64,000 nucleotides of DNA from a virus. A program made the translations under genes and the position numbers. Under the pieces are notes generated by a model. The model did not search any database and had not been told where the DNA came from. It worked only from the letters and a program-made list of their open reading frames with translations. This document shows positions 2,325 to 61,368 of the stretch, piece after piece (position 1 is the first letter of the stretch; the number at the start of each line of letters is the position of its first letter). The stretch covers positions 64,001-128,000 of IMG/VR virus record IMGVR_UViG_3300020420_000008; one strand, written 5' to 3'.

Positions 2325-5143
2325 TGGCACTTGATGCAAAACTATCAACATTAGTAGAAAATCAGTTTCCTGCTTTTTATAAAGAAGAAGGTCCTAAATT
2401 TCTTGCTTTCATTAAAGCTTATTACCAGTACTTAGAAACAACTGGTAAACAACAAGATATTCAGAGAAACTTAAAAAACTACAAAGATATTGATACTACA
2501 TTAGACGAGTATATACAATACTTTCGTTCAGAGTTGATGCCTGAAATACCTGATGACGCTCTTGCGGATAAGAGATTGCTTGCCAAACGTATTAAAGACT
2601 TATATACAACAAAAGGTACAATCGATTCGTATAAGTTATTATTTAAAATACTTTATGATGAAGATGTTGAAATAAATTTTCCTGCGGATCAAATGCTTAA
2701 AGTATCTGATGGTGATTTTAGAATTGACAGATACTTGGTTACTCATCATGATCCTAGAGCGTATACTCTCATAGGAAAAACAATAAAAGGAACTGATAGT
2801 CAAGCTGAAGGCTTAGTAGAAGACGTAAAAAGACTTGTAGCTAAAAACAGAGATGTTGATCAAATTCTTTTGTCGAATGTAAAAGGTTCTTTTAATCATT
2901 TAGAAGCAATACAATTAAAAGGTGTACCAAATAGTTATGCACCAATTGTTGAGTGTGGTATACGTAGAGTTACAGTTGCAACAGGTGGTGGTGAATATAG
3001 AAAAGGTGATATCGTAGATATTATATCTTCTAAAACAGGTGCATTTGCCAAAGCAGTTGTAACAGATACTACAAATTTACAAAGTAAAGTTAACTTCAAT
3101 CTCATAGATGGTGGTTCAGGTTACGTAACAAGTGAAGAAGATCAAGGCACAATATTAGAGTATGTTGGTGGAGATGGAACAGCACCTGCCAGTTTTAAAA
3201 TATTTGCTGGTGATTTGACTGATACTTTTGCACTTAGTTTATGTGTAAATAAATTTGCTTCAAACACTATTTTTGGTTCTACTGCACCTAGAGTCAACTA
3301 CAGAGATGGTAGTTTCGGCATTATGGATTCACATGCAAATACTTTGTTATCTAGTCCTGATTTTGGGTTTAGAGAATCTAATGAAACTTTGACAGAAGGA
3401 ACAAATTTTAGAACAAACGCAAATGCTGTTTTAATTATAGCCAACACTTCTGATCCAGGTGTTGTAGTTGGTGATAGTTTATTTGGAGTAACTTCTTCAG
3501 CAAACGCAATAGTAAAAGCTATACGAAGAACATATGACACAACATTAGATAATGTTATTCTTGCAGTTGATACTTACAAAAATTTTCAAGCCAATGAAAA
3601 GGTTAATAAAGGAACAGATGAGGGTACTACAATAGGTACTGTCAAAGCAACAGGCGGTTTCTTTGCAAATACAATAGGTTATCATGTTATTCAAGTAGCA
3701 AACACTGATGGTGGTGGAGGAGTAACACAAGGCGATGAACTTGTAGGAATTAAATCAGGTGCTTTCGGTGTTGTTAAAAAAGTATTAGACATTACAGCTA
3801 GTAATCAATATGATCATGATGGTGATAGTACTCCTGATAGAAAAATTATTACTATGCAAGTAACATCAAATACTACATCAAACACAACAAGTCAATTCGA
3901 TGCTGGAGCCATGAAAGCATTTATAGAAAAAGAAGGTATTAGAAAAGTTGATAGTTCAGTTATCGTAGGAAACAATGTGAGTCAATCTGCTAATACATTA
4001 ATAGAAAATATTCATACTAAATTATCTGATTCGTTGTTATTTGTCAACAATACAGTTGGTACAATTGCTAGATTATCTAATAGATTAGGTGGACAGAACT
4101 TTACAGTGGCACCTAAAGTTGTAGTAGAGCATAGGAATGTTGCCGCCTTAGGTATCGGCGAAGCTTATCTTACTGTTCAATATGACGATATAAATTTTGC
4201 TACAGGCAATTCAAATATAACAGCACTTGATACTAATGACAGATTAGAACAAGCAACAACTGGTGCTAAAGGTAATATTATGAATGTTGGACAAACAATT
4301 CAACATGCCAATACAACTTATCAAACTGTTCTTAGATTATGGCAAGATGATTTGCAAAGAGAACCTGGAAATATTAATTGGGCTAATGATGCTATTGTAA
4401 CTACAAAACATTTTGATGATGCAAGTCGAAGCTCAGTAAAAGGAACAGGAACAATTAAAATAGTAGGCGTACAAGATGAAGGTGTATTAGGTGAAAACGC
4501 AAATATCACAGCCGATGTTGGTGCAAATGGCTCTATAAAAACTGCTAGAGTTATAGACTCTGGTTTCTCATACAAACCAAAAGAAACAATACTTTTTTCT
4601 TCTTCAGGTAGAACAAATGCCATTCAAGCAACAGGCACAATTACTATAGATGGTATAGCAAACGCTGAAGGTTATTATGCGTCTACAAGAGGACACGTAT
4701 CATCATCTAGAGGTTTTATACAAGATAGTAATTTTTACCAAGAGTTTTCATATGAAATTGCCGCCTCTATAGCACTAACAAGATATAGAGATGTTGCTTT
4801 GAGATTGATACATCCAGCTGGACAAAAGTTTTTCGGAAAATTTAAAGTTTCGACAAACGCTATGAGTCAATCAGTATCTACAAGTTTAATAAGAACAAGA
4901 AAAGTTGCAACAGGCACAATAGCCATCAATAACAATGCAAATACGATAACAGGAACTGGTACACAATTAACAACAGAATTTGCAAACGGACAATCAATAA
5001 TAATAGGTCCAATTAGCAATGTCTTTTATCAAGCACGACTAAATATAGTCAACAGTGCAACTAGTGCCAATCTCGCTGTGAATTGGACACATGGTAATAT
5101 AACAGGAGCAAATGCTCATTATTTTTCAGGAACGGTATCATAA
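2324..5143 (+). CDS. gp7: Baseplate wedge initiator, gp7-like
   Basis: N-term QFPAFYKEE..FIKAYYQYLE..IKDLYTTKGTIDSYKLLFKILY; C-term IQDSNFYQEFSYEI..HPAG; sits between gp6 and gp8; TAATG coupling. Confidence 0.8.
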   Translation: MALDAKLSTLVENQFPAFYKEEGPKFLAFIKAYYQYLETTGKQQDIQRNLKNYKDIDTTLDEYIQYFRSELMPEIPDDALADKRLLAKRIKDLYTTKGTIDSYKLLFKILYDEDVEINFPADQMLKVSDGDFRIDRYLVTHHDPRAYTLIGKTIKGTDSQAEGLVEDVKRLVAKNRDVDQILLSNVKGSFNHLEAIQLKGVPNSYAPIVECGIRRVTVATGGGEYRKGDIVDIISSKTGAFAKAVVTDTTNLQSKVNFNLIDGGSGYVTSEEDQGTILEYVGGDGTAPASFKIFAGDLTDTFALSLCVNKFASNTIFGSTAPRVNYRDGSFGIMDSHANTLLSSPDFGFRESNETLTEGTNFRTNANAVLIIANTSDPGVVVGDSLFGVTSSANAIVKAIRRTYDTTLDNVILAVDTYKNFQANEKVNKGTDEGTTIGTVKATGGFFANTIGYHVIQVANTDGGGGVTQGDELVGIKSGAFGVVKKVLDITASNQYDHDGDSTPDRKIITMQVTSNTTSNTTSQFDAGAMKAFIEKEGIRKVDSSVIVGNNVSQSANTLIENIHTKLSDSLLFVNNTVGTIARLSNRLGGQNFTVAPKVVVEHRNVAALGIGEAYLTVQYDDINFATGNSNITALDTNDRLEQATTGAKGNIMNVGQTIQHANTTYQTVLRLWQDDLQREPGNINWANDAIVTTKHFDDASRSSVKGTGTIKIVGVQDEGVLGENANITADVGANGSIKTARVIDSGFSYKPKETILFSSSGRTNAIQATGTITIDGIANAEGYYASTRGHVSSSRGFIQDSNFYQEFSYEIAASIALTRYRDVALRLIHPAGQKFFGKFKVSTNAMSQSVSTSLIRTRKVATGTIAINNNANTITGTGTQLTTEFANGQSIIIGPISNVFYQARLNIVNSATSANLAVNWTHGNITGANAHYFSGTVS

Positions 5144-6903
5144 TGACTTCTTATGCTAGTAAAGAAATGAACATCATGGGTGCAAAAGCTTTTGTAGACT
5201 CTGTAAATGAGTCAGACGGAAGAAGCACAAAAAATTCTACAATACTTTATGCTGTTCTAGGTAAAAGTACACATTGGCCCAACGAGCCCAATGCACCTAC
5301 AGCTACAGAGACAATAAAAGATAAACATTACACTATCTGGAAAGATGCCATAGGAGCTAAGAAAATAAACCCGTCAGATGTAAGTCATGTTGTTCCTAGA
5401 CATGATTGGGCTACAGGTAGAGTTTATCCTATGTACAAGCACACAAATACTAACTTATACTTATCCGACTTCTACATATTAACAGATCAAAATAATGTGT
5501 ATAAATGTTTGTATAATAATAAAGGTGGGCAGTCAACTGTGAAGCCAGCTGGTTTCTCAACAACACCTTTTACTACATCAGATGGTTATACTTGGAAGTA
5601 TATGTACACTATCAGTTTAGGACTAGCAAGTAAATTCTTGACAGCATCACATATGCCAGTTCAAACTCTCTCAGAGAGTGATGGTAGTGCAGAGCAAACT
5701 AATCAACTTGCAGTTCAAAATGCATCAGTAAACGGCGCCATTCAGATTATAGAAACAAATGATGTAGGTTCAGGTTATGGTATGTTAAATAGTACCGCTG
5801 TTATAGGTGCTACATCAACTACGGTTCAGTTAGCACAAGGTAATCCTTCTTCAGTAGATAATCATTATAACGGCGACTCAGTTTATATTCAGTCAGGCAC
5901 TGGACTAGGACAACTTAGAAGAATTGTAAATTATGATGGTTCTACAAGGACTCTTACGACAAATACAGGCTTTACAACAACACCTGATACAACTTCTACT
6001 GTAATTGTTTCACCAACAGTAAATATAATAGGCGATGGTGTAGGTGCTTTAGCTTATTCACTAGTAAATACAAATGGTAATATATCGAATGTAAATGTAA
6101 TAGCAACTGGTTCTAAGTATACACATGCCAAAGCTTTTATTACATCAAATACAGTTACAGGAACTGGAGCAACTGCCAATGTAATCATATCACCCATAGG
6201 TGGACATGGTAAAGATGCAATAAGAGAATTAGGTGGTAATAAAATCTGTCTAAATGCACAATTTAAAGGTAGTCAAGGTGTTTCAGCAACAGGTAAAGGA
6301 TTTGTTCCTGCGAATACAGAATTTAGAACAGTAAGCATTCTCAAAGATCCTATTCTTAAAGTTGATTCTAATAACGCTATTATGACAGAAGCAATAGCAA
6401 ATACATCTAATAGTGCAGACACATTAAGATTAACAACAAGATTAAATATTTCATATCAACAATTAATAAATACTATACCACAGAATCAGTTTCAGATAGA
6501 TGATGAGATAACAAATGAGAGAATGAGATTGAATGCTGAAAATGGTACTATTGGATTCATTACTGAACTAAATGCGTCAGCAAGAGAAAATGCTTCTGTA
6601 GCACAAGCATCAAATGGTGCAAACGGAACAATAGTTTTTATTAAAGATGATGAGTTATTAAGCGATACATCATTCTTTAATATCTATCTAAATAATGTAG
6701 ATAGTTATGGTAATCATGTCGCTTTTACGAAAAACGACATTTTGTTAAAAAGAGGAAGTTCTACAAAAGTTGCAACTGTATCAGATATATCAGGTCCAGA
6801 GGCAAATACATATTCAGGTGAATTTATACATGTAGAAAACTTTCAGAAAGTTGATAGAGCAGTAGATCAAACTGAAGATATAAAAGTTATACTAGATTTT
6901 TAA
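5143..6903 (+). CDS. gp8: Baseplate wedge subunit gp8 (extended)
   Basis: VVPRHDW..FYILTDQNNVYKCLYN..DGYTWKYMYTI; C-term YSGEFIHVEN..R..DQTEDIKVILDF. Confidence 0.9.
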   Translation: MTSYASKEMNIMGAKAFVDSVNESDGRSTKNSTILYAVLGKSTHWPNEPNAPTATETIKDKHYTIWKDAIGAKKINPSDVSHVVPRHDWATGRVYPMYKHTNTNLYLSDFYILTDQNNVYKCLYNNKGGQSTVKPAGFSTTPFTTSDGYTWKYMYTISLGLASKFLTASHMPVQTLSESDGSAEQTNQLAVQNASVNGAIQIIETNDVGSGYGMLNSTAVIGATSTTVQLAQGNPSSVDNHYNGDSVYIQSGTGLGQLRRIVNYDGSTRTLTTNTGFTTTPDTTSTVIVSPTVNIIGDGVGALAYSLVNTNGNISNVNVIATGSKYTHAKAFITSNTVTGTGATANVIISPIGGHGKDAIRELGGNKICLNAQFKGSQGVSATGKGFVPANTEFRTVSILKDPILKVDSNNAIMTEAIANTSNSADTLRLTTRLNISYQQLINTIPQNQFQIDDEITNERMRLNAENGTIGFITELNASARENASVAQASNGANGTIVFIKDDELLSDTSFFNIYLNNVDSYGNHVAFTKNDILLKRGSSTKVATVSDISGPEANTYSGEFIHVENFQKVDRAVDQTEDIKVILDF

Positions 6904-6914
6904 AGGTAAAGTAG

Positions 6915-9900
6915 ATGGCACTCGAAACAAATTTAAACCAAAGTCCTTACTATGACGATTTTGATGAAACAAAAAACTACAACAGAATTTTGTTTCGTCC
7001 TGGTTTTGCTGTACAAGCTAGAGAATTAACTCAGCTACAGACAATACTACAAAATCAAATAGAAAGATTTGGTAACGAAATACTAGTAGACGGTACAATT
7101 GTTACAGGTTCTGCTCTAAAAATAGAAGATATAGACTTTGTAAAACTCAGAGATAAAGACGCTAATAACAGAGTTATTCTACTAACAGACTTTTTCTCAG
7201 GTGGTGTCGTAGCAAATGCAACAATCACCGGTACTACTTCAGGTATGACAGCACAACTAATAGATGTTGCTGATGGTTCTGAGGCGGCTAATCCAGACAA
7301 CATGACACTCTTTGTCAAATACACGAACTCAGGTACAAATAACACAACAAAAGCTTTTGTTGACAATGAAGTTCTTACTTTAAGAACTAGAACAGGAGCA
7401 AGTTTCATAGTTGCCGCCAATACGGGAAGTTCTAGTTCTACAGGTTTAGGTACAAGAGCATCGGTATCAGACGGTATTATTTTTCATAAAGGGCATTTTG
7501 TAAGAGTTGGCGCTCAAAGTCATATAGTAGATAAGTATAGCACATCGCCATCAAAGAAGGTGGGCTTTCAAACAGTAGAGACATTAGTTAACTCAAACAT
7601 TGATAGTAGCTTGGCAGACAATGCATCAGGTTCTACTAACTTCGCCGCCCCTGGAGCAGACAGATTAAAAATGTTACCTACTCTTGCATCAAGAGTTACG
7701 GGTGCCGCCAATACTGCTACTTTCTTTACAATAGCTGAATTGAAAGATGGTGTACTAATTCGAAACAACAAAGACACAATGTACTCAGACATTGGTAAAC
7801 ATGTCGCTATGAAGTTTCACGAAACATTAGGTAACTATGCAACAGAACCTTTTACAATTCGTGTTCGTGAACATCTAAAATCTAGTGAGAACTTAGGTAG
7901 ATATAATTCAGATGAAGGCGGAGATGCAAATAAACTTATAGCTGAAGTTGACAAAGGTATTGGTTATGTAAACGGACAAAAAGTTCAATTAATAAATCCT
8001 ACACCTTTAGAAATAGATAAAGCAACAGACTTCACTACAAGAGATGCAAGAGTTTTAACACAAACTTTTGGAAACTATGTCTTTATTAAAGAAGTTGCTG
8101 GTACATGGGACTTTCAAGGACTTAGAGAAGTCTCATTACGTAGTGCCGCCGGTACAGCAATAAGTAGTAAAACTTTTGGCGATACTACAGCTCCAGGTTC
8201 TGAAATAGGTACAGCTAAAGTAAGAGGCTTTTCATATCACTCAGGCATAGCAGGAACTGCCGATGGACAATTTAAATTATATCTATTTGATATAAGAATG
8301 AATAGCACTAAGAACTTTGCAGATGTACGTTCAATATTTGAAGCAGAGTCAACACACAACTCAATAGCAGATATTGTTCTTACCGGAAGTAATGCTGTTC
8401 TGCAAGAGCCAAGTAATAACCTATTAGTATTACCATTCTCAGCATTAGGTACAAAAACTTTAAAAGATTCGTCTAATAATGTTGATACTCAGTTTGTTTT
8501 TAGAACCGAAAAGACAGTTACATTTACACCTTCTGGTGCATCATTGAGTGCTACAGTTACAGCAAACTCAGCACATGCAGGTGGTGTAGAAACTCTCAAT
8601 GAAACAGGTAGTCCTTTATCAGCAGGTAATGAGAGAAAAGTTATTGTGGTATCTAAAGCACAAACTTTGACAGTTCCTAGAAGTGGGCATATCGCATCAT
8701 TTGGAACTAAAACAATAACAGGTGCTGGTGGTAGTAAATTCAACGAAGACTATCAAGCAGGTGATATTATAAGATTGACAGATAGTACAAATCCTTTTAC
8801 AGGTAGTGCAGGAACAGAAGATCATATTATAGCAAGTATCAATAGTGCTACAAGTATCACAACTAAAGATACAATATCAGCAACAAGAAGTGGACTAGGA
8901 ACTAGTGATGCTGTATCGCATCGACAAGTATTTCCAAAAGGTTATGTTTTCGATACTTCCGCCAATGGTATCATACAGTCTTCATCAACTCAACACAACA
9001 TAAATTTACAACAAGCTAATGTTGTAAGCAGTTTTTCTGCTTCTGTATATTTTAATGTTCTACGCTCAAGTGCCGTGCCTACTGCAAAAACAATTAAAAA
9101 GAGTAGATATATAAACATCAATACCCAATCTCATTCAGCAGGCGCAAATGGTCCGTGGAGTTTAGGTGTTGCAGATGTTTTTAAAATAGAAGCAGTATAT
9201 CTTGGAGCAGATACATCATCAGTTACCACAAGTGATCAAAATGTAACAAGTCACTTTGATCTTGACACAGGACAAAAAGATGATATGTATGATATAGGAA
9301 AACTTGTGAAGAAATCTACAAGTTCTCTCAATATAACAAACAAAGCTATACTTGTCAAGTTCTCATTTTTCGAAAGAAATACTTCTCAAGGTATAGGTTT
9401 CTTATCAGTAGATTCATATCCAGTAGATGACTCAACAGAAAGTGCAACAACTATTAAGACATTTGAAATACCAAAATACAAATCAGTTACAACGGGTAAG
9501 ACATATGAATTGCGTGACTCTGTAGATTTTCGTCCTATGAAAGCCAATACTTGTGATCCTACTACAACAGCTACGATTGCAGGTTCACCAACAAATCCAG
9601 GAGCAGAAAAGTCAGCACCTAATACATTTACTATAGATTCAGATGGTGCATATAATGTTGCGCCTGACGAAAACTTTCAAGCAGATATTCAACAATATCT
9701 ACCTAGAAAAGACAGAATTGTAATTACAGAAGAAGGTAAACTAGAAGCTATCAAAGGTATACCTGCCGAAACACCAAAAGTACCTGAAGAAAAAGCAAAC
9801 GCTATGACATTAGGTGTTTTAAATGTACCTGTATATCCATCTCTATCATCAAAAGTTGCTAGAGATAATGATAAAGGTGACTATGGTGTAAAACTTACGT

Positions 9901-12884
9901 TAGAAAATAATAGACGATACACAATGAAAGACTTGAGAGGTATCGATGAGAGATTGAAGAATGCTGAATATTATTCTTCATTAAACGCTCTTGAAGCAAG
10001 TGTAAAGAATAAGCAGTTATTTAATGGCTCTGGCTTTGATAGATTTAAAAATGGTTTCTTTGTAGAAAACTTTGACGGACACAATCTATCAGATTCAACA
10101 AAGAAAGGCTACAGAGCATCTATTGATAGAAATAAAAATATACTACGTCCTTACTTCAAGAGAAGAGATATTCTCATGGAGAAAGATAAGTCATTTACTT
10201 CTACAAATGTTACACAGACAGGCAACTTACTCACATTAGCTTACACAAGTGTTTCTTTTATAAATCAAGATAAAGCAAGTAAAGCTAGAAATCCAGTTCA
10301 AGAATTAACATTTAACTGGCAAGGTAACTTGACATTAGATCCACCTATGGATAATACACCTGACATTACAGCATTGCCTGATATTCAAATGGATTTCTCA
10401 GGTATGTTCGATGCTTTTGAGCAATTGGCTGCCTCTACAGGATTTACTGGTACCGATTGGGGCGGTTGGATTAATACTGACAATGCTCAAATTACAAATA
10501 TAACAACAGAAACTAATAGTTCAACAATATCTACTGTAGGTACTTTGCAACAAGAACAGATACGACAAGGTATTCAAACATCTATTAGTCCTGCTAATCA
10601 GACATTTAACATAGGTAACTATGTACAACAAGTAGCTGTTCGTGAGTTTATGCGTTCAAGACTTGTTAAGTTTACTGCACATGGTATGAAACCTAGCACA
10701 AGAGTTTATCCTTATTTTGATGATGAACAAGTAAGTGGTTTTACAACACCAACAAACTCTGCACACGCAAATACTGCCGCCGAAGGTAGTGCATTGATTA
10801 CTAACTCAGCTGGTTCTGTTCATGGTGTGTTTAGAATACCTGATACAAATACCTTGAAGTTTAGAATTGGTACTAGACGATTTAAATTACAAGACGTTGC
10901 AAACAATCAAATAGCAAGTGATTTGACAACAACATCTTCTTTCGCAGATTATACTAGTATACCTCTTACAATTACTCAAAGAGGTGCTTCTATGAATCTT
11001 GTAGTTCCTCAAGTAAATACAGAGGACGTAACAGAAACAAGAACTCAGACTTCTAGAGTTGTACTCAGCACACGTTCTGTAAATCCAGATCCTATATCAC
11101 AAACATTCTCAGTAAATGAAGAGCAATCTTCTGGTGTTTTTATCACTAAAGTTGATTTATACTTCTTCAGAAAAGCAGGTAATTTACCAATCACTGTTCA
11201 GATACGTGAGGTAGAAAACGGACATCCTACGCCTAATATTCTGCCATACGCATCGAAAACTTTATTTCCATCATCTATAAATGCAAGCACAACCTCTGCT
11301 ACAACAGCGACAACATTTACATTTGACTCACCAGTATTTTTAAAGAACTACAAAGATTATTGTATCACAATAGTTCCTGCTGGTAACTCAGATGAGTATG
11401 CAGTATGGGTGGCAAAACTAGGTGCAAAAGATGTTGATACAGGCGAGTTAATTGATAAACAACCAGGTGCTGGTGTTCTACTTAGTTCTGCAAACGATAA
11501 AACATATACAGCTATTCAATCTGAAGACTTAAAATTTCAGTTGCATAGAGCCGAGTTTTCAAAGACACAAGGTACTGTATTCATAGAAAATCCTGATAAC
11601 GATTTCTTCACATATGATAATAAAGCTGGCACATTTAATCCTGAAGAAAAGATACGTGCTGAATCTGTATTGAAGTTTTCTAATAATCAGACTGTATCAG
11701 TAGGGCATGTTCTTAAAACGAAAGCTACATCAGGTGCTAACTTTGCAAATGGTACTGTAAGACAGATTGTACAAAACAGTGTAGCTGGACAAGTAACTGT
11801 CAAGCTAGATGCTTATGGTGATTTTCCAACAACCGCAAGTTCTAATACTAATAATGTTTATATAAGTGGTAGTACAACACACGGAGGTTGGGCTGGAAAT
11901 ACAGTTTTATTTACAGCAAATACAAATAACGGTTTCTTAGATTTTATAGATGAACTCAATGAAAAGATGACTCTGAAAAACTCAACGTATACAGGAAACG
12001 CAAATGGTTTTATAAGAGGGCAAGTTAGTGGTGCTTCTGCTAGAGTTTTAACCGCAGAAAATATTGTAAACAATGTCATGGTGCCTAAGATACCTGTTAT
12101 GAACTTAGCAAACACATCTTCAACATTTTCTGTAAGAACCGCAACTACAGGTGGTGTTATTAATACTAACTTTAAAAGTTTAGATTTAGAGGTAGAGAAT
12201 CCATTTACAGATAATGCGAAATCAGTTCATAGTAAAGTAAATGAATCAGCTTTGACTGCCGTGAATGGTTCTAAGAAAACTCTTGTCGTTAGAGGATTTT
12301 TAAATACAAGTGATTCTAAAGTATCACCAATCATAGATTTGTCAAGAGCAAATTCATACATTTTAGAAAATGTTATTAACGATAGTTCTACAAATGAAGA
12401 GAAGCAAGAAGTTGGTAGTGCAGTAACACGATACTTCTCAAAACCAGTTGAACTTGCTGACGGACAAGATGCTGAAGATTTAAGAATATATGTAACAGCT
12501 TATAAGCCTTCAGGTACAAACGTAAAAGTTTATGCACAATTATTAGCATCATCAGATGGTGAGCCTCTCGCTGATAAAGATTACACTTTGTTAACGCAAG
12601 CTACATCAGCAAGTGTTATTTCTGATACAGCCGATACAAATGATTTTAAAGAGTTCGAATATACTCTATCTGCAAATACTGATGGACAGAATTTCTTAGG
12701 AAGTAATAATGATAATCAGGCGAAACTAAATACCGCTGATAGTAATATTGTTTCGTATAGAACTTCAAGTGGTGTTGTGCATAAGACATATAAAACATTT
12801 GCTTTTAAGATTGTTTTGACATCAACATCAAATGCAAGCGTACCTTTTGTAAAAGATTTGAGAGCAATAGCATTACAGGTGTAA
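6915..12884 (+). CDS. Large virion structural protein, DUF4815/VrlC-like, 1989 aa
   Basis: TNLNQSPYYDDFDETKNYNRILFRPGFAVQARELTQLQTILQNQIERFG, NFAAPGADRLK, RRYTMKDL, DRFKNGFFVENF, DPISQTF, C-term P.VKDLRAIAL; usual position after gp8 in marine T4-likes. Confidence 0.85.
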   Translation: MALETNLNQSPYYDDFDETKNYNRILFRPGFAVQARELTQLQTILQNQIERFGNEILVDGTIVTGSALKIEDIDFVKLRDKDANNRVILLTDFFSGGVVANATITGTTSGMTAQLIDVADGSEAANPDNMTLFVKYTNSGTNNTTKAFVDNEVLTLRTRTGASFIVAANTGSSSSTGLGTRASVSDGIIFHKGHFVRVGAQSHIVDKYSTSPSKKVGFQTVETLVNSNIDSSLADNASGSTNFAAPGADRLKMLPTLASRVTGAANTATFFTIAELKDGVLIRNNKDTMYSDIGKHVAMKFHETLGNYATEPFTIRVREHLKSSENLGRYNSDEGGDANKLIAEVDKGIGYVNGQKVQLINPTPLEIDKATDFTTRDARVLTQTFGNYVFIKEVAGTWDFQGLREVSLRSAAGTAISSKTFGDTTAPGSEIGTAKVRGFSYHSGIAGTADGQFKLYLFDIRMNSTKNFADVRSIFEAESTHNSIADIVLTGSNAVLQEPSNNLLVLPFSALGTKTLKDSSNNVDTQFVFRTEKTVTFTPSGASLSATVTANSAHAGGVETLNETGSPLSAGNERKVIVVSKAQTLTVPRSGHIASFGTKTITGAGGSKFNEDYQAGDIIRLTDSTNPFTGSAGTEDHIIASINSATSITTKDTISATRSGLGTSDAVSHRQVFPKGYVFDTSANGIIQSSSTQHNINLQQANVVSSFSASVYFNVLRSSAVPTAKTIKKSRYININTQSHSAGANGPWSLGVADVFKIEAVYLGADTSSVTTSDQNVTSHFDLDTGQKDDMYDIGKLVKKSTSSLNITNKAILVKFSFFERNTSQGIGFLSVDSYPVDDSTESATTIKTFEIPKYKSVTTGKTYELRDSVDFRPMKANTCDPTTTATIAGSPTNPGAEKSAPNTFTIDSDGAYNVAPDENFQADIQQYLPRKDRIVITEEGKLEAIKGIPAETPKVPEEKANAMTLGVLNVPVYPSLSSKVARDNDKGDYGVKLTLENNRRYTMKDLRGIDERLKNAEYYSSLNALEASVKNKQLFNGSGFDRFKNGFFVENFDGHNLSDSTKKGYRASIDRNKNILRPYFKRRDILMEKDKSFTSTNVTQTGNLLTLAYTSVSFINQDKASKARNPVQELTFNWQGNLTLDPPMDNTPDITALPDIQMDFSGMFDAFEQLAASTGFTGTDWGGWINTDNAQITNITTETNSSTISTVGTLQQEQIRQGIQTSISPANQTFNIGNYVQQVAVREFMRSRLVKFTAHGMKPSTRVYPYFDDEQVSGFTTPTNSAHANTAAEGSALITNSAGSVHGVFRIPDTNTLKFRIGTRRFKLQDVANNQIASDLTTTSSFADYTSIPLTITQRGASMNLVVPQVNTEDVTETRTQTSRVVLSTRSVNPDPISQTFSVNEEQSSGVFITKVDLYFFRKAGNLPITVQIREVENGHPTPNILPYASKTLFPSSINASTTSATTATTFTFDSPVFLKNYKDYCITIVPAGNSDEYAVWVAKLGAKDVDTGELIDKQPGAGVLLSSANDKTYTAIQSEDLKFQLHRAEFSKTQGTVFIENPDNDFFTYDNKAGTFNPEEKIRAESVLKFSNNQTVSVGHVLKTKATSGANFANGTVRQIVQNSVAGQVTVKLDAYGDFPTTASSNTNNVYISGSTTHGGWAGNTVLFTANTNNGFLDFIDELNEKMTLKNSTYTGNANGFIRGQVSGASARVLTAENIVNNVMVPKIPVMNLANTSSTFSVRTATTGGVINTNFKSLDLEVENPFTDNAKSVHSKVNESALTAVNGSKKTLVVRGFLNTSDSKVSPIIDLSRANSYILENVINDSSTNEEKQEVGSAVTRYFSKPVELADGQDAEDLRIYVTAYKPSGTNVKVYAQLLASSDGEPLADKDYTLLTQATSASVISDTADTNDFKEFEYTLSANTDGQNFLGSNNDNQAKLNTADSNIVSYRTSSGVVHKTYKTFAFKIVLTSTSNASVPFVKDLRAIALQV

Positions 12885-20403: not shown

Positions 20404-23400
20404 ATGGCGGACTTTGATGTTACGCTAGGTTCAAATAAAGGTAACTTAAATGTAGAGTTCGATAAACCTACGCAAGATTTAACTTTAAAGAATCAGGCGG
20501 CTACTAAGACAAATATAAGAGACTTCAACGATGTTGATAGCAACACTTTTCAAGGTGCACCGGCGGCGAATGGTGAGTCTATACTTGTCTATAATGCCAA
20601 TACAAAACTCTTTCAGTTACGCTCAGGTAATATAAGACTTAGAGAAAATCCAGCACATTATTCAGGATTAAAGTATACAGCCGAAGGTGCTTTTATACCT
20701 GACACAAACAATGCTTACGATTTAGGTTCTCCAGGAAGAAGATTTAGAACACTATTCTTATCTGGCGAAACAATTAAGTTAGGTAATTTAAATCTTTCTG
20801 ATTCAGGTGATACAATCACTATCACAAAAGATACTATTATCGATGGTGTTATTCAGAATGTTGTTATTGGTACTCTCAGCACACAAACTCTAAACACAGA
20901 TAATTTTGAAGCCGCCAATCTAGTAGCGAATAGTACATTTACTGTAGAAACACCAAGAGCCTTTTTTAATCAAGGTATGACTGTAAAGTCGGGTGTCATA
21001 CAAGCGAGTAATACACATCTTCATGCAAATAATATATCGATAAGAAATAATCTAACTGTCAACGGTGCTATCATACTCAGAGGTAGCACAATGAATCTTG
21101 GTGATGGCGGTGATGTCATAAATCTTGGTGCTACAGTTAATACTAGTATTTTACCTACAAGTTCTAATTTGCTTGATATTGGTGCGCCTGCACAGAAATA
21201 CGCAAATGTATTTACAACAAGCGTAAAAGGTTTACAAACACCAACAGAAGGTACAGATGGTGCTAATAAAGCATATGTAGACGATAGTATAGGCAATATA
21301 AGCACAACGGCAGATGGCACAACACTAGGTACTGGTTTCAATACACTGAATGATGGCGCATCAGTAGGATTTCAAGCTAGTGATAATTTAATATCCACTC
21401 TTGATAATATCAATGAGACAGCTTTTAATATTTTTAAAAATACATATGTTCGTGATGTAACTTTTGCTTCAGATAAAACATCAGGTGGTGCTGGCACGAC
21501 TGTTACTCTTACATTGACTGTAACAGGAAATGCAACTAGATTTGATATTAATTGGGGCGATGGTTCTACTGATACTGACGTAACTGATACAACACCGAGT
21601 CATACATATACATCAAATGCAGGTTCTCCATATACAGTTGTAGTTACTGCTAGAAATCATAATGCTATTTCAGGTTCTAAGGGAAGTTCAGCATCTTTTA
21701 CAAGAACAAATTTCATAACAATATTCTTAGCTGATCCAGTTCCTTCATTTACTATTCATGATGCATCGACAGATGGTAACTTAATAACAACAACATCTAC
21801 AGGTGTACCGGTATATTTAAATAATACAACGACTAATATACCAAATACAGCTATTACAGCAACTTTCTCCGTAAATTGGGGAGACGGCACTGCTACTGAA
21901 AATGTTACAGGAAAAACAGAAAATGGTGGACCTCAAGGTGGTAGGTTAGCACACACATATACAAATGCATCAGGTACAGGAAGACATACAGTAACACTAA
22001 ACGTAGTTAGTTTTGATGCTGGTGATCCTTCTGTTCTGCCTCTCAGTACAACTTCATTGATAAAAGTATTTGATGCTTCTATAGCATCACCTAATCATCT
22101 AGGTACAAAGACAATATCGCTCAACACTTCTTCTGTTGGTACGAATCCTAAAGTTGCATCAGGTTTTACAACAAACGGTGTTTCAGGAACAAACGCTGGT
22201 GATAACGTAACTCGCTATACTACATCAGGTGCAATTGCAACTGCCGCCATGGGCTCATTTTTCTTTCAAGCAGATGGTGGTACTCTAAGTGCATTTGTAG
22301 ATGGTAGTGCAGACGGACAAAAAGCTATTACTAATGCAAATGATGAAGGAACTTTTACAAGTCTCATCATTGACGATGAGCAAGATTATAACAGCTTTGA
22401 TGCAGATGGCAATACTGTAGCAGTAAATAGTAGAATATATGCTCCAGGATTATTCGAAGGTTATAAAGCACGAATATCAAAGAGTAATTTCTCAACAGGC
22501 TTACACTCTCTTCAATTACAATCAACTGCTGGTAATACTAACACATTGAAGTTTATCAGAGATGATGTAACAATAACACCTACAACAAGTGTAGGTTCTG
22601 CAACACTTACACAGGCGTCAGCTGGTACATTATCTTATATATCAGGTATACCTTACTATACAAATGATGCAACACTCACTCTTGCTGGTGTAACTGTACA
22701 AAGTTTTACAGGACAAACTTTTCAAGACACAACATCACCTGTAGTAGTAGAAAACTCTACTGACTTAGAAGGCACATCAGGTAATGCAATAGGAACAAAT
22801 AACTTTACATACGCAAATATAGATGGTAGTACAACTATGTTAGAAAGTGGTACACCAAAAGTAAATATAGGAACAGCATCACCTTACGCTCTAGGTAATC
22901 TTACAGTAAATGTAAATGGTGGCGGTAAACGTGTAGAAAGATTACAAGTAAAAGCAAAGAACTCAAACGGAACTGGTAGTGCTGTAATATTAGCATCGCC
23001 TGCAATACAAGCATATAATGGTAGTAAATCGTTTGATGAGACTGCGATACCTGTATCAGACTCACTAGGTGCTGGCTTTGATAATGATGCCAAACGTATT
23101 CATAGTTTGACTGGTGGTGCAGTAGCATTTAGTAATTCTACTGATTACTTTGCAGATAACGCTTTTACAGGTGCCCAAACAGTAGCAGGCACAACTGAAG
23201 CGATAGTGCGATACGATACACTAAAGCACTTCACAACTGATTTGTCAAGTGGTTATTTACCAGCTGGACCTAATTTAAATACAGGACGTTCAGGTGCCCA
23301 ACATTTTGTTTTTGCTTTCAAGAGAACAACTGTTTCACGTTTTAGTATTACGCTTACGGGTAAAGTATCAGGACTTTTTGTAGCTGTTCCTAATACTGCA

Positions 23401-41350: not shown

Positions 41351-42862
41351 ATGCCAACGAATTTTTATTTTGATAATTTTGCTCACACAGGACAGCAAAA
41401 TTTAATAGAAGATTTAATTATCGAATCTATCAAAATATATGGTTACGATAATTTTTACATACCTAGAACAATCGTAAAAGAAGATGATTTGTTTGGTGAA
41501 GATGTATTATCTAAATTCGATAATGCTTTGCCATTAGAAATGTATATTAAAAACGTAGAAGGATTTGATGGTGAAGGTGAGTTTCTTTCAAGATTTAATG
41601 TGGAAGTGAGAGATCAGATAACTTTTTCTATAGCACAAAGAAGATGGCAAGAAGAAGTATCTATAGACGATAGAAAGATAGATGAACAAGGAGAAAGAAT
41701 AAATCGTCCAGTAGAAGGTGATTTGATATTCTTTCCTCTTACAGGACAACTATATGAAATAAAATATGTCGATAAACAACCTATCTTTTATCAGATGGGA
41801 CAGCTACAGATGTATGATTTGCGTTGCGAACTATTTGAGTTTAGCCACGAAAGAATTGACACTGGTGTCAAAGCGATTGATGACTTGGCTGCCAGACATA
41901 CTATCAATGTTCTTAACTTTCAAATACTTCTTGAAGCATCTAAAGAACGTGCATTGGGTACTACTGTACTAACAAATGATAAAGTTACAGGTGTATCGTT
42001 AAGCAATCTTGGTGATTATGATGCTAGTCCTACAGTAACATTTGGTGCACCGCCTGCCGCCCAAGTTGCTATAGCTACATCAACAATAAGTTCAGGAGCT
42101 GTTACAGGAGCTACAGTAAATTCAAATTTACAAGGTTCTGGTTATATAGCCAATGTACCTGTTACTTTTAGCAGTCCAGAAACAACGCAAAGAATACAAG
42201 CTACAGCTACAGCTACAATTTCAGGAGGTTCAGTAAGTGCAGTTACATTAACAGAGAATGGTGGTTTTTATACTTCTGCTCCACCAGTTTCAGTATCAGC
42301 ATCACCTTCAGGTGATGATGCGGTTCTTACATCAACTATTGCAGGTAATCAGCTTTTACAAATTTTAATTCAAAGCGGTGGTTCAGGATACACTTCTGCT
42401 CCTACAATTACGATAGGTACACCTAATAATGCTATACATTTTGCCGCCTCTGGTATAGCAGTTCCTGATGCAAAAGGTAATATAGGTAATATAATAATAA
42501 CAGGTGGCGGTAAATATTATGAAAATGCACCTAGCGTTACTATAGGTAATCCTCCAGATTCTATTAGAGCCACAGGTACAGCACAGATATCAGGTACACA
42601 AGTATCAGGCATAACTATTACAAATCAAGGTAGAGGTTATGTAAACGTAAATGGCACACCTTTCGTTCCCTCTGTAACTTTCTCAGTAGAGACATTTACA
42701 GGTGGCATTAGACTTGAAGATGGTGATGGATTGTTATTAGAAGCTACAGCAAATACAACTCATGAAAACTCTACAGCTAACAATGTTTTCTTTGAAACTA
42801 ACAAATCAGGATTTATAGATTTCTCCGAACTGAATCCTTTTAGTGAAGGAACTGATTGGTAA
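41351..42862 (+). CDS. gp14: Neck protein gp14 with a long repeat insertion
   Basis: QQNLIEDLIIESIKIYG..YIPR..RPVEGDLIFFP..YDLRCELFEFSHE; C-term IDFSELNPF; start moved to the ATG at 41351, after the gp13 stop. Confidence 0.92.
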   Translation: MPTNFYFDNFAHTGQQNLIEDLIIESIKIYGYDNFYIPRTIVKEDDLFGEDVLSKFDNALPLEMYIKNVEGFDGEGEFLSRFNVEVRDQITFSIAQRRWQEEVSIDDRKIDEQGERINRPVEGDLIFFPLTGQLYEIKYVDKQPIFYQMGQLQMYDLRCELFEFSHERIDTGVKAIDDLAARHTINVLNFQILLEASKERALGTTVLTNDKVTGVSLSNLGDYDASPTVTFGAPPAAQVAIATSTISSGAVTGATVNSNLQGSGYIANVPVTFSSPETTQRIQATATATISGGSVSAVTLTENGGFYTSAPPVSVSASPSGDDAVLTSTIAGNQLLQILIQSGGSGYTSAPTITIGTPNNAIHFAASGIAVPDAKGNIGNIIITGGGKYYENAPSVTIGNPPDSIRATGTAQISGTQVSGITITNQGRGYVNVNGTPFVPSVTFSVETFTGGIRLEDGDGLLLEATANTTHENSTANNVFFETNKSGFIDFSELNPFSEGTDW

Positions 42863-44517: not shown

Positions 44518-46157
44518 TGTCTACTCTAACATATCTTGGTAATCCTAATCTAAAAGCAAAAGGCGTATCTGTAAACTTTGATAAAGAAAATATCAAAGAA
44601 TACATAAAATGTTCTAAAAATCCTGTATATTTTGCAAAAAACTACGTAAAGATTATTAACGTAGATAAAGGACTTGTTCCTTTCAAGTTATATAAATTTC
44701 AAAAAGAAATGGTTGAAACTTTCAATAAAAATCGTTTCAGTATATGTAAACTACCTAGACAGTCAGGTAAATCAACTACAGTCACAGCTTATATATTATG
44801 GTTGATACTATTCAAAGATAGTCAAAATATAGCCATTCTTGCAAACAAAGGTTCTCTTGCAAGAGACTTATTAGGTAAGATACAGTTTGCATATGAATAC
44901 TTACCAAAATGGTTACAGCAAGGTATTGTTGTATGGAATAAAGGTAACATTGAGTTAGAGAATAGCTCTAAGGTTGTTGCCGCCGCCACTTCATCGTCAG
45001 CTATTCGTGGTGGTTCGTATAATCTCATATTCTTAGACGAGTTTGCCTTTGTTGGTAATAATCTAGCGGAAGAGTTCTTCAGTTCTGTTTATCCTACAAT
45101 ATCTTCTGGACAAACTTCTAAAGTAATTATAGTATCTACACCAAATGGTATGAATCATTTCTATAAAATGTGGACTGATGCTGAAGAAAAGAACAGCCAG
45201 TACGTACCTATAGAAGTACACTGGAGCCAAGTTCCAGGAAGAAACGAGAAATGGAAGAAAGAAACAGTTGCAAATACTTCTGAAGAACAGTTTCGTCAAG
45301 AGTTTGAGTGTGAGTTTTTAGGTTCAGCTGGTACACTTATACACCCTACTAAACTTAGAGTATTAGCACATGTGACACCTATAAAGAAATGGCAAGATGT
45401 TGAGATATATGAAGAACCAAAACAAGATGCAATATACACAATGTCTGTTGATGTGTCAAGAGGTGTTGGTTTAGATTATTCTGCTTTTATTGTTGTAGAT
45501 ATATCACAGATGCCTTATAAACTTGTAGCAAAATATAGAAGTAAGGATATATCACCACTATTATACCCTACTATTATTTACAATGTAGCAAAGTATTATA
45601 ACGAAGCTTACGTATTAGTAGAAATAAATGATATAGGACAACAAGTCGCTGATATATTACATCAAGATTTAGAGTATGAAAATATGTTAGCAACGTCTGT
45701 GAAAGGTAGGGCAGGACAACAAATAAGTGGTGGATTTTCCGGTTCATCATCTATGGGTATCAGAACTACAAAACAAGTAAAAAGAATAGGGTGTTCTAAT
45801 CTAAAAGATTTGATTGAGCAAGATAAATTTATTGTACAAGACTATGAAACGATTGTAGAATTATCAACATTTATAAGTAGGGGTGGTAGTTATGAATCTG
45901 AAGAAGGTTCTCATGATGATTTAGTTATGTGTTGCGTTTTATTTTCTTGGTTAGCTAAACAAACATATTTTAGAGATATAACAAATACCGACATACGACA
46001 GAAAATTTATGATGAAAAGCTGAGAATGTTAGATGATGAAGCACTACCTTTTGCTATCATCGATGATGGACAACCAGAAGAGGGTGTTGTTCACTCACAA
46101 GAAGATATAGAAGAATTTATCAGAAAAGGAAACAAAGATAGCTTTAGTGTATTCTAA
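44517..46157 (+). CDS. gp17: Terminase large subunit gp17
   Basis: YLGNPNLK, Walker A PRQSGKST, Walker B IFLDEFAF, STPNG, FRQEFECEF, HDDLVM. Confidence 0.97.
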   Translation: MSTLTYLGNPNLKAKGVSVNFDKENIKEYIKCSKNPVYFAKNYVKIINVDKGLVPFKLYKFQKEMVETFNKNRFSICKLPRQSGKSTTVTAYILWLILFKDSQNIAILANKGSLARDLLGKIQFAYEYLPKWLQQGIVVWNKGNIELENSSKVVAAATSSSAIRGGSYNLIFLDEFAFVGNNLAEEFFSSVYPTISSGQTSKVIIVSTPNGMNHFYKMWTDAEEKNSQYVPIEVHWSQVPGRNEKWKKETVANTSEEQFRQEFECEFLGSAGTLIHPTKLRVLAHVTPIKKWQDVEIYEEPKQDAIYTMSVDVSRGVGLDYSAFIVVDISQMPYKLVAKYRSKDISPLLYPTIIYNVAKYYNEAYVLVEINDIGQQVADILHQDLEYENMLATSVKGRAGQQISGGFSGSSSMGIRTTKQVKRIGCSNLKDLIEQDKFIVQDYETIVELSTFISRGGSYESEEGSHDDLVMCCVLFSWLAKQTYFRDITNTDIRQKIYDEKLRMLDDEALPFAIIDDGQPEEGVVHSQEDIEEFIRKGNKDSFSVF

Positions 46158-56117: not shown

Positions 56118-56180
56118 AGAAGAAGTAGTAACTAAACTGAAATTGAGAATAGCTAAATTTAAAAAAGATCATGCTGAAAT

Positions 56181-58035: not shown

Positions 58036-58598
58036 TGGTTAAAGCTAAAAGACAAAAACATAATTATGTTGACAATAAAAAATTTTTAGCTGAGATGATA
58101 ACATATAGAAGATCAGTTACACAAGCAACTGACTTTGGTGTAGAACGTCCTAGAGTACCTTTTTATATTGGTGATTGTATCATGAAAATTGCTACACACT
58201 TATCATACAAACCTAATTTTATAAACTACACATTTAGAGAAGAGATGATATCAGATGGCGTAGAAAATTGCTTACAGTATATTGATAACTTTGATCCTGA
58301 AAAGTCTAAGAATCCTTTCGCATATTTTACACAGATTATATATTTTGCATTTCTAAGACGAATACAGAAAGAAAAGAAATATCTATATACAAAATATAAA
58401 GCATCAGAAAACACAAATTTGTTTGGAGAAACTTCAGAAAACTCTGGAGAGAACGGCAGAAATTATAATGATAAAATTAAATATAATGAGTGGAGTGAAG
58501 AATATATGAATGATTTTATAGAAAACTTTGAGGAAAATAAAAGAAAGAAAAAGAGAAAAATTATCGCACCTTTAGATAAGTTTATGGCTGAGCAATGA
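58035..58598 (+). CDS. gp55: Late-transcription sigma factor gp55
   Basis: NYVDNKKFL, IATHLSYKPNFINYT, EMISDGVENC, NPFAYFTQIIYFAFLRRIQKEKK; ATG at 58035. Confidence 0.97.
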   Translation: MVKAKRQKHNYVDNKKFLAEMITYRRSVTQATDFGVERPRVPFYIGDCIMKIATHLSYKPNFINYTFREEMISDGVENCLQYIDNFDPEKSKNPFAYFTQIIYFAFLRRIQKEKKYLYTKYKASENTNLFGETSENSGENGRNYNDKIKYNEWSEEYMNDFIENFEENKRKKKRKIIAPLDKFMAEQ

Positions 58599-59656: not shown

Positions 59657-61368
59657 TGATATACTTTGAAAATATTCGATGGAAGAACTTTCTATCAACA
59701 GGTAATCAATGGACAAACATACCTTTAAACACACACTCAAATACAATTATAGTAGGTGAGAATGGTGCTGGTAAGTCAACGATACTTGATGCACTATGTT
59801 TTGTACTGTTTAACAAACCTTTTCGTAAAATAAGTAAATCGCAAATGTTAAACTCAATCAACATGGGCGGACTTGAAGTAGAAGTAAAATTTAGAATTGG
59901 TAAGATGAACTATACTATACGTAGAGGTATGAAACCAAATATATTTGAAATACATCAAGACAGCACTTTACTCAATCAACCAGGTTCAGCTAGAGATTAT
60001 CAGAAGCAACTAGAAGAAACTATACTTAAACTAAACTTTAAATCTTTCACACAGATAGTTGTTCTTGGTGCATCTACATTTATACCTTTCATGCAACTGT
60101 CTGTGTCGCATAGACGAGAGGTGATAGAAGATTTATTAGATATTAGTATATTCTCTAATATGGGTAAACTATTGAAAGATAGAGTTGCAGAGAACAAAGA
60201 ATCTATACGTGACTCAGACTACCAGATAGATTTACTTAAAACAAAAATAGATACACAACAATCCTACATTCGAAAACTAAAAGAGCAGAATGATGATACA
60301 ATAGCTACATTTCAAAACTTGATAGATGGTGCCCAAGATGAAATCAATGACTTAACACAACTATCAAATGGTATAGTTGAGAAGATAGAGTTTCTATCAG
60401 AAGATGTTGCACCTCTCAAAGTCAATGAAAATAAGAAAGCTAAACTTATCGACATTCACAATAGAATGCAAAGAAAGATAAAGAATGCGGAGAAGAGAAT
60501 AGCTTTCTTCAATGATAATGCGGAGTGTCCTACTTGTTCTCAAGATATCAGTGATGATATTCGTGATAGTAAAATATCAGAAACAAATGCTACCATAGTA
60601 GAAGTAAAAGCTGGTGAAGGCGAGTTGCAAAAACAATTATCTGAACTCGATGGTAAAATAAATGATATGTTATCAGCACAACAAAGATTGGTAGGATTAC
60701 AAACAGAGATTGCTGAAAACAATTCTAGTATAAAATCTCTGAATAAATCTATACAGAAAAACCAGAAAGAAATAGAGAAGATAAAAGATACTGGTGTCGA
60801 TAGTGCTGAAACATATGAGAAACTTAAACTTTATGAAGACGATAAGAGACTCAACGAACAGAGAAAAGAAGAGTTAGTTAATGATAGAGAACTATTCAGT
60901 GTAGCAGTAAATATGCTCAAAGATGATGGTATCAAAAAGAAAATCATCAAACAGTATGTGCCAGTTATGAACAAACTTATCAACAAATATTTGGCTGCCT
61001 TAGATTTCTTTGTACTGTTCGAACTAGATGAACAGTTCAATGAAGTTATTAAGAGTAGACATAGAGATGAGTTTTCGTATGCATCATTCTCGGAAGGTGA
61101 GAAAATGAGAATAGACTTAGCATTACTATTCACATGGCGTTCTATAGCAAAACTCAAAAACTCTATCAATACAAATCTACTAATACTTGATGAAGTATTC
61201 GATGCATCTCTAGATAATAATGGTTGTGATGAATTTCTAAAACTATTGAACCAGCTAGATAACCAGACAAATGTATTTGTAATATCTCATAAAGGTGATA
61301 TACTATCTGAGAAGTTTAAGAATCAGATACGATTTGAGAAATATAAAAACTTTAGTAGGGTGGCATAA
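59656..61368 (+). CDS. gp46: Recombination ATPase gp46 (Rad50/SbcC-like)
   Basis: GENGAGKST, CPTC zinc hook, FSEGEKMRIDL, LILDEVFD, ISH. Confidence 0.97.
   Translation: MIYFENIRWKNFLSTGNQWTNIPLNTHSNTIIVGENGAGKSTILDALCFVLFNKPFRKISKSQMLNSINMGGLEVEVKFRIGKMNYTIRRGMKPNIFEIHQDSTLLNQPGSARDYQKQLEETILKLNFKSFTQIVVLGASTFIPFMQLSVSHRREVIEDLLDISIFSNMGKLLKDRVAENKESIRDSDYQIDLLKTKIDTQQSYIRKLKEQNDDTIATFQNLIDGAQDEINDLTQLSNGIVEKIEFLSEDVAPLKVNENKKAKLIDIHNRMQRKIKNAEKRIAFFNDNAECPTCSQDISDDIRDSKISETNATIVEVKAGEGELQKQLSELDGKINDMLSAQQRLVGLQTEIAENNSSIKSLNKSIQKNQKEIEKIKDTGVDSAETYEKLKLYEDDKRLNEQRKEELVNDRELFSVAVNMLKDDGIKKKIIKQYVPVMNKLINKYLAALDFFVLFELDEQFNEVIKSRHRDEFSYASFSEGEKMRIDLALLFTWRSIAKLKNSINTNLLILDEVFDASLDNNGCDEFLKLLNQLDNQTNVFVISHKGDILSEKFKNQIRFEKYKNFSRVA

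Follow-up and report, generated by a model that had tools for sequence, protein, structure and literature searches.

Restriction sites have been purged wholesale from the genome of a marine T4-like myovirus of the pelagimyophage group (about 146.6 kb), and the sites that survive do so almost entirely in one sequence context, in which a terminal C of the avoided word is followed by another C. The analysis concerns a 64,000-nucleotide stretch, hereafter the window, comprising bases 64001–128000 of the single 146,609-bp virus record IMGVR_UViG_3300020420_000008, and was extended to the whole genome, its relatives and cultured phages. The starting point was the word GCNGC (degenerate bases are given in IUPAC letters), which persists in the window with particular flanks only; this observation is real, far beyond chance and one face of a general rule. 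The explanation that we favour, with a probability of roughly 60%, is that the phage avoids the sites of many restriction activities and carries a phage-specific shield, suggested by the sequence pattern, on the C:G pair of C-then-C.

Window counts that are given with an expectation were summed over both strands and compared with a null of 200 amino-acid-preserving codon shuffles in which codon usage was kept. A preliminary description of the window had found about 80 GCNGC sites by eye, all as GCCGCC, GGCGGC or GGCWGCC, and the complete count bears it out: there are 81 sites, 72 of them GCCGCC/GGCGGC and nine GGCWGCC, and each coordinate that it gave is correct. With their flanks, the sites read TGCCGCC (24), AGCCGCC (12), CGCCGCC (10), GGCGGCA (11), GGCGGCT (9), GGCGGCG (6), GGCAGCC (5) and GGCTGCC (4), and no other flanks occur. 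GCCGCC, as an in-frame alanine–alanine (Ala-Ala), is first met on the plus strand at 4142–4147, the earliest of 46 in the window (others lie at 4760, 7413, 8145, 34998 and 51733), and an overlapping pair at 44979–44987 reads GCCGCCGCC. GGCGGC, mostly a G-ending codon followed by GCG-GCN, starts at 7283–7288 on the plus strand and is the first of 26 (also 15653, 52221 and 53602). The palindromic GGCWGCC, represented by GGCTGCC at 10427–10433, occurs at 10427, 26197, 26317, 41887, 46431, 47892, 52764, 53205 and 60993; these nine are the sole GCWGC in the window, and the site at 60993 is conserved in the relative L093.

The forms reported as missing are absent where the shuffles predict them in number. 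HGCDGC/GCHGCD occurs 0 times in the window against 127.4±6.0 (shuffle minimum 111), GCWGC with other flanks (HGCWGCD) 0 times against 99.9±9.0, and GCCGC followed by A, G or T 0 times against 14.6±3.6. GCCGCC, by comparison, is 12-fold enriched (72 versus 6.0±2.1) and GGCWGCC reaches 18 strand counts versus 1.8±1.8, with binomial tails of 3e-68 and 3e-20, respectively. The total is nevertheless what the shuffles predict (162 versus 168.5), so that GCNGC is, as had been proposed, tolerated in one context and redistributed rather than depleted. The genome as a whole follows suit, with 137 of its 140 GCNGC sites conforming. Each of the three that do not is a GCSGC lacking one flank, and one of them (genome position 48092) lies inside the phage transfer-messenger RNA (tmRNA) gene. 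Genome-wide, HGCDGC is found 3 times versus 232 expected, while GCCGCC is enriched 13.5-fold and GGCWGCC 5.6-fold. An agent of the Fnu4HI/TseI type that ignores the flanks does not account for these figures, because GCNGC as a whole stands at 280 versus 305 expected and HGCDGC alone is depleted.

The unchanged total has its origin in the genetic code, since Ala-Ala is always GCN-GCN and cannot avoid GCNGC. Ala-Ala in frame accounts for 128 of the 140 genomic sites, and its codons have been rewritten to comply: 76 are GCC-GCC, 41 are GCG-GCN (40 of them after G), 10 are GCW-GCC (all after G) and one is GCC-GCA, in a genome in which single alanines are encoded by GCA (45%), GCT (37%), GCC (11%) and GCG (7%). 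The dipeptide itself is under-used, with 128 occurrences versus 224 expected from composition. At conserved Ala-Ala positions, the close relative L010 writes GCG-GCT, GCC-GCA and similar pairs, and the rewriting is therefore recent and specific.

The dependence on a following C extends to words that are unrelated to GCNGC. Genome-wide, GGTC followed by C stands at 52/57.4 (observed/expected, 0.91) and GGTC followed by A, G or T at 1/308 (P=7e-41); in the window, all 18 GGTC/GACC, including the one at 2390–2394 on the plus strand, are GGTCC (GGWCC). This four-base asymmetric word matches no restriction enzyme known to us, and its avoidance is shared by the relatives L010, L093 and L096. For GCGC, each of the 39 sites in the window, from GGCGC at 837–841 on the plus strand onwards, and 54 of 54 in the genome have a 5′ G or a 3′ C; GCGC followed by C stands at 1.16 of expectation and WGCGCW at 0 versus 64. 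GGCC is reduced to 14 counts versus 163, with HGGCCD at 0 versus 125, and all seven surviving sites are GGGCC; the four in the window (GGCCC at 5276–5280 on the plus strand, and 18795, 19311 and 37750) are all GGGCC/GGCCC. GTGCAC is present in five places, all five of which read GGTGCACC, and those at 20554–20561 and 42044–42051 are the sole GTGCAC in the window; GWGCWC as a class has 10 strand counts versus 106. AGCTC is found at 0.45 of expectation when followed by C and at 0.11 otherwise, the corresponding values being about 0.7 versus 0.00 for GCWGC and 13.9 versus 0.11 for GCCGC. The binomial tails for the rule run from 4e-5 to 3e-68, and the rescue is common to at least seven different avoided words. 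Any of the four bases can stand before the rescued C (GTGCAC-C, GGTC-C, GGCC-C and GCGC-C), and the motif is therefore C then C, not GCC.

A pooled test of all depleted 4-, 5- and 6-mers, split by last base and next base, gave relief for last C with next C alone (0.47, 0.36 and 0.19), all other pairs lying at 0.00–0.17. Where an end of the form C-then-C is impossible, no survivors are seen (CGCG, CTGCAG, AGATCT, AACGTT, CTTAAG, CACGTG, CYCGRG and CGATCG) or almost none (CGWCG); counts on both strands are 0/79 for CGCG, 0/71 for CTGCAG, 0/110 for AGATCT and 0/70 for AACGTT. GAATTC, another purged word, stands at 0/83. The full set of purged words comprises GCWGC, GCSGC, GCGC, CGCG, GGCC, GGTC, GWGCWC, GAGCT(C), GGATG, CGWCG, CYCGRG, GAATTC, CTGCAG, AGATCT, AACGTT, CTTAAG, GCTAGC, GCATGC, CACGTG and GTCGAC, together with a mild general depletion of CCC/GGG and of Shine-Dalgarno-like words. 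The FokI-type word GGATG/CATCC is five-fold depleted (29 versus 153), and 14 of the 29 survivors are TGG-ATG, that is, Trp-Met, for which no synonymous alternative exists; these sites are forced by the protein, and selection therefore acts down to single sites.

Depletion of mostly palindromic words on both strands, measured here against an amino-acid-preserving null, is the hallmark of restriction-site avoidance in phages, as surveyed before (PMC6286503), and the present case resembles that survey in the short palindromes, the large number of sites and a set of words that varies among relatives. It differs in that the survivors obey one flank rule and in that unavoidable Ala-Ala are recoded to the tolerated form, which is 13–14-fold enriched. 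No report of such a flank rule was found in a literature search.

Relatives of the phage show the rule at work on different sets of words. L010 (82% amino-acid identity) and L096 avoid GCWGC, GCGC, CGCG and GGTC, with rescue as GGCWGCC, GGCGC and GGTCC, and they do not avoid GGCC or GCSGC; L010 writes Ala-Ala as GCS-GCN. L093 (89% nucleotide identity) has rescue forms identical to those of the studied phage. The studied phage has added avoidance of GGCC and GCSGC, with the same C-then-C rescue. A single flank rule that holds for enzymes encountered at different stages speaks for a trait of the phage DNA itself.

Cultured phages divide into those with and those without relief. In the Pelagibacter myophage HTVC008M, which avoids a different set of words, GATC followed by C stands at 111/140 (0.80) versus 55/540 (0.10) for GATC followed by any other base, and the same comparison gives 0.89 versus 0.04 for GAATC, 1.09 versus 0.00 for GAGTC and 0.76 versus 0.05 for GCATC. 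In 50 kb of Mosig, also a cultured Pelagibacter myophage, six of six GATC are GGATCC. HTVC019P, a 42-kb podovirus of host strain HTCC1062, shows no relief: GATC is at 0/176, including GATCC at 0/34, and GCGC (0 versus 42; GCGCC 0/8), GGCC (0 versus 24), CCGG (0 versus 27) and CGCG (0 versus 24) are likewise empty. Melnitz, a phage of OM43, avoids GATC without relief, and CRP-6 and Mel-JY03 show none either, which speaks against a bias in the method. Only certain phages thus have the relief, and neither the enzymes nor the host can be its source. A second footprint is seen in Melnitz, S-CAM9 and partly HTVC008M, in which avoided words that begin with C survive after G (G-CCGGT, G-CCTCC, G-CCTGA and G-CCGA). 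Melnitz carries a C5 methyltransferase gene (4070–5170 of its record), which fits the idea that rescue footprints report marks on short motifs.

According to the explanation that we prefer, the phage DNA would be under selection by many Type II-like restriction activities, and C followed by C, which on the opposite strand is the second G of GG, would be protected, so that an outermost C:G pair of this kind would lift selection on the site. One shielded end would suffice for GCGC, GGCC, GGTC and AGCTC, and two shielded positions would be required for GTGCAC and for GCNGC (the second and fifth bases of GCCGCC on one strand, or the fifth base of GCWGCC on both strands). Sites in which no C can precede a C would have no escape form and would stand at zero. 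Ala-Ala, always spelling GCNGC, would be partly lost, and the remainder would be rewritten into shielded forms. The preliminary description had already located a shield at GG, on its second G or on the C paired with it, and this remains the best fit to everything computed, although its wording in terms of GGC/GCC was too narrow. We infer that the shield is a covalent, phage-directed and post-replicative modification with a motif of dinucleotide size; C followed by C makes up about 15% of C in the genome, and a similar share, about 15% of C:G pairs, would carry it. The statistical footprint would fit a mark on the first C of CC, but sequence reveals neither which base is marked nor by what chemistry. 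A mark on the flanking, second C is less likely, because GGCC would then always be marked within the site and yet needs a mark outside it.

Several other marks and processes were considered and set aside. Methylation of GGNCC alone would cover GGTCC and GGGCC and leave GCGCC, GCCGCC, GTGCACC and AGCTCC unexplained. A GGC-specific deazaguanine is at odds with the avoidance of GGCC, with rescue in TCC and ACC contexts and with the absence of DpdA. A phosphorothioate at CpsC would put the modified phosphate beyond the bonds that are cut, and dnd or ssp genes were not seen. Very-short-patch repair or deamination bias would predict other depleted words. As for the cause of the purge, a single nuclease cannot account for about 20 specificities, and no support was found for a role of a kinase with a weak Zeta_toxin match and a 409-aa ‘restriction-like’ protein for which no family was found.

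A number of results weigh against the shield. GGCC is avoided although its inner C always precedes a C; it follows that the mark gives no protection against that enzyme, in contrast to the 5-methylcytosine (m5C) of M.CviQIX, which blocks HaeIII. GAATTC, GAGCAC/GTGCTC and GAGCTC leave no survivors followed by C (0 versus 12.8, 10.7, 8.9 and 5.4 expected), and the internal CC of GGATG and CCCGC does not spare these words from depletion. HTVC019P and the myophages may owe their selective histories in nature to different host strains. Finally, six-frame family searches over the whole record (PF00145, PF01555, PF01702, PF00303, PF12851, PF02086 and PF20691) detected no C5 methyltransferase, no N4/N6 methyltransferase or Dam, no TGT/DpdA (PF01702), no thymidylate-synthase-like hydroxymethylase (PF00303) and no TAGT (PF20691); the search with PF12851 (TET/JBP) also gave no match and is uninformative, as its control had none.

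The strongest competitor, which we nonetheless consider unlikely, leaves the phage DNA unmodified and attributes the flank rule to enzymes of the host populations, whose extended specificities would exclude a 5′ G or a 3′ C (WGCGCW, HGGCCD, GGTCD and HGCDGC). A degenerate pattern can indeed be drawn up for each forbidden set, some enzymes do have flanks of this sort, for example HaeI (WGGCCW), and the lack of a modification gene suits this account. It would, however, require at least seven unrelated words to share the same flank exclusion, as GATC, GANTC and GCATC do in other phages, and HGCDGC and GGTCD are asymmetric and degenerate in a way that, to our knowledge, Type II sites are not. HTVC019P, on the same host strain, avoids GATCC and GCGCC as fully as the other flanks, and Melnitz is without relief at GATC, neither of which is expected if the flanks belong to the enzymes.

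Somewhat less probable again is that the mark is real and the enzyme is an orphan of the host, a modification enzyme for the CC motif shared by the hosts of these myophages rather than encoded by the phage. The lineages with strong relief (the studied phage, HTVC008M and Mosig) have or seem to have SAR11-like alphaproteobacterial hosts, Melnitz, without relief, infects OM43, and no phage gene for the shield was identified. Set against this are HTVC019P, which replicates in the same strain HTCC1062 with zero relief, and the frequency of the rescued forms, which matches expectation and leaves no sign of residual selection, although host enzymes seldom modify the whole of a fast-replicating T4-like genome.

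The preliminary description had offered a further alternative, now very improbable, in which GC steps outside GGC/GCC are methylated and a BisI-like methyl-directed nuclease attacks the GCNGC that hold them. It explains the GCNGC pattern taken alone. It fails for GGTC, which has no GC step, and for GGCC, in which the GC step is never ‘naked’; it leaves the survival of GGTCC only, GGCC, GTGCAC-C and AGCTC-C unexplained, GCGC needs one flank only, and the whole-record search found no GpC methyltransferase gene. Least tenable of all is an origin unrelated to restriction (codon-pair or translational preference, mutation bias or assembly artefact), for which the mild depletion of CCC/GGG and Shine-Dalgarno-like words could be cited, given that the purged words are depleted on both strands and in every frame and are mostly classical palindromes, that counts are 0 versus 35–125 expected in amino-acid-preserving shuffles, that L010 encodes the corresponding Ala-Ala with different codon pairs and that the genome was assembled independently from several TARA samples.

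Precedents for a phage-directed mark of the kind that we favour are available. The chlorovirus methyltransferases M.CviPII and M.CviQIX methylate the first C of CC; m5C at this position blocks HaeIII, and HaeIII resistance serves as the assay for M.CviQIX activity (10.1101/2022.06.10.495194). The likeness lies in a virus-encoded mark on a dinucleotide motif, the position that we propose, C then C, being the C methylated by M.CviQIX; the motif of M.CviPI (GC) similarly matches the rescue of C preceded by G in Melnitz, S-CAM9 and HTVC008M. Unlike the chloroviruses with their C5 methyltransferases, the studied phage, HTVC008M and S-CAM9 have no PF00145 gene, and the avoidance of GGCC by the studied phage, where the m5C of M.CviQIX blocks HaeIII, implies that the chemistry or the enzymes differ. 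Phage CAjan places preQ0 (dPreQ0) on GA and GGC, which blocks HaeIII (PMC7544227). Its system is comparable in that a post-replicative, motif-specific change on a minority of G blocks restriction and in that GGC overlaps GGC/GCC; it is unlike the present one in that the studied phage lacks DpdA/TGT, is rescued also in TCC, ACC and CCC contexts, and avoids GGCC as well as, fully, the GA-containing GAATTC and AGATCT. The hydroxymethylation and glycosylation of C in the T-even phages differ as well, the studied phage having neither PF00303 nor TAGT and a thymidylate synthase of the ThyX type; the heavy site avoidance argues against global replacement of C.

A further comparison is with Mom of phage Mu, which has a GNAT fold and, with Gly-tRNAGly, attaches a carbamoylmethyl group to N6 of deoxyadenosine in double-stranded DNA (PMC13219725, PMC7261163). 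Here a lone phage enzyme, by marking some copies of one base within a short degenerate context, confers broad protection from restriction, and the best structural match of a predicted GNAT core in the studied phage is, narrowly, Mom. This core, at about residues 114–380, belongs to a 435-aa protein of the DruA/DUF4338 family (PF14236, 1.5e-22) encoded at 62113–63420 on the plus strand, a family that has been called GNAT before (PMC10853773). Mom differs in that the present footprint lies on C:G pairs, not A, in the lack of sequence similarity and in length, the DruA-like protein being twice as long.

In a model of the DruA-like protein built with 28 homologues (mean predicted local distance difference test score, pLDDT, 84), Mu Mom (8bv8) heads the structural matches, with a Foldseek E value of 8e-4 and, in VIA-align, a Z score of 9.6 and a root-mean-square deviation of 3.6 over 166 aa. 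Full-length orthologues among cultured phages are confined to Mosig (a DUF4338 gene) and HTVC008M (86149–87255); Melnitz, CRP-6 and Mel-JY03 lack the gene, and the tblastn matches do not include HTVC019P. Many contigs of T4-like phages, marine and freshwater, carry it directly after gp46 or, as here, a short way behind (L104–L107, around position 10001). The family has about 3,900 homologues; a family of shorter paralogues occurs in Synechococcus phages and is named ‘methylcarbamoylase mom’ in one GenBank record. In L096, a TAGT-family gene (PF20691; L096:11107-12018), adjoining a homologue of the small methyltransferase described below, occupies the place of the DruA-like gene, and the region behind gp46 has the look of a hot spot for genes of DNA modification. 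The link of the DruA-like protein to the shield is weak: other GNATs (SpeG and AAC(6′)) score within 1 Z of Mom, a profile search of PDB sequences did not find Mom, to which there is no match at the sequence level, four further contigs that bear the gene show only faint relief (0.24 versus 0.09–0.17), and the correlation between gene and relief is small and confounded with phylogeny. The modelled protein is therefore best regarded as a weak candidate for the shielding enzyme, a lead and not a finding. That pelagimyophages possess an undescribed hypermodification of a dinucleotide motif (C-then-C or its paired G), made by this GNAT-fold protein when, in the manner of Mom, it transfers an acyl or aminoacyl group onto an exocyclic amine of C or G in double-stranded DNA, is a doubtful proposal, and N4 of C or N2 of G as its target is speculative.

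The small methyltransferase encoded just upstream is the sole recognisable DNA methyltransferase in the genome and, in Pfam searches of about 70 non-structural proteins, which otherwise returned replication, nucleotide-metabolism and sugar genes, the only DNA-modifying enzyme; it has no Pfam match of its own but matches phrog_799 (6.5e-35). This 176-aa minimal amino-methyltransferase (61368–61898, plus strand) lacks a target-recognition domain. Motifs X (FYPTP), I (EPCAGDG) and IV (NPPW) follow one another in the order of gamma-class amino-methyltransferases, with a Rossmann fold and invariant columns, and the nearest folds to its model (pLDDT 87.6) are M.BseCI, M.TaqI, METTL5 and KsgA. The model resembles N6-adenine methyltransferases; the enzyme is probably adenine-directed, and GANTC as its target is a guess. 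Its family, with thousands of metagenomic members, comprises about 6,600 homologues of 170–185 aa, about 60% identical and without a Pfam model, which among cultured phages are nearly confined to phages of Alphaproteobacteria. As the gene is absent from HTVC008M, with strong relief, and present in CRP-6 and Mel-JY03, with none, it is neither necessary nor sufficient and is probably not the shield. A 73-aa open reading frame for which no family was found (61885–62106, plus strand) separates it from the DruA-like gene, with equivalents of 70 and 74 aa in L093 and L096. After the DruA-like gene comes a 467-aa protein that straddles the end of the window (genome 127462–128865; L009:462-1865) and has a weak C-terminal HNH_4 match; a GmrSD-like identity is unsupported by Pfam or PADLOC.

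The genome as a whole has 35% G+C, with a plus strand richer in A than in T. Its tail sheath is about 50% identical to those of its closest cultured relatives, Stenotrophomonas phage DLP6 and the Pelagibacter and OM43 myophages, and 10 kb of it found no match among cultured phages by megablast. Independent assemblies from several TARA Oceans samples (three assemblies of 146.4–146.6 kb) differ in their end points, and the genome is therefore probably complete and circularly permuted, although CheckV estimates 76%. Outside the window lies a two-piece (permuted) tmRNA with the tag ANDDFAPVDYALAA (genome 47777–48227; L007:9777-10227), which, together with relatives that infect SAR11, points to an alphaproteobacterial host. 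It is overlapped by the sole tRNA detected in the phage, a tRNA-Gly (anticodon ACC); Mom uses Gly-tRNAGly, and chance may or may not account for a tRNA-Gly in a phage with what could be a Mom-like system. Sugar-nucleotide genes (L005:11582-17265 and L006:14836-18168) include a Kdo-8-phosphate-synthase-like DAHP_synth_1, a cytidylyltransferase domain in a 1274-aa protein, a KpsC/KpsS-like capsule synthesis protein and a GT1 glycosyltransferase. Also present are a plastocyanin-like copper protein, ThyX, a class II ribonucleotide reductase, PhoH, MazG and CobS, and the family B DNA polymerase is split into two adjoining, overlapping open reading frames of 480 and 362 aa (L005:228-2751).

If the favoured explanation is true, widespread ocean phages, the T4-like viruses of SAR11-type bacteria, shield their DNA with an undescribed mark, and sequence alone can disclose the motif of this mark, as a ‘rescue footprint’ in the restriction sites that are avoided. 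Such a footprint test is applicable to any phage genome, cultured or not, and it has already separated phages with the C-then-C form from those with the C-after-G form, one of the latter encoding a C5 methyltransferase to match. Two cultured phages of Pelagibacter HTCC1062, HTVC008M and Mosig, lend themselves to a check of the prediction, and a modification made by the DruA-like protein would hint at the role of DruA in the Druantia type I systems of bacteria. The rewriting imposed on Ala-Ala would be a clean natural case of selection at the DNA level that alters codon-pair choice and dipeptide content, and the phages of SAR11, the host genome of which is very small, would face restriction pressure from about 20 specificities.

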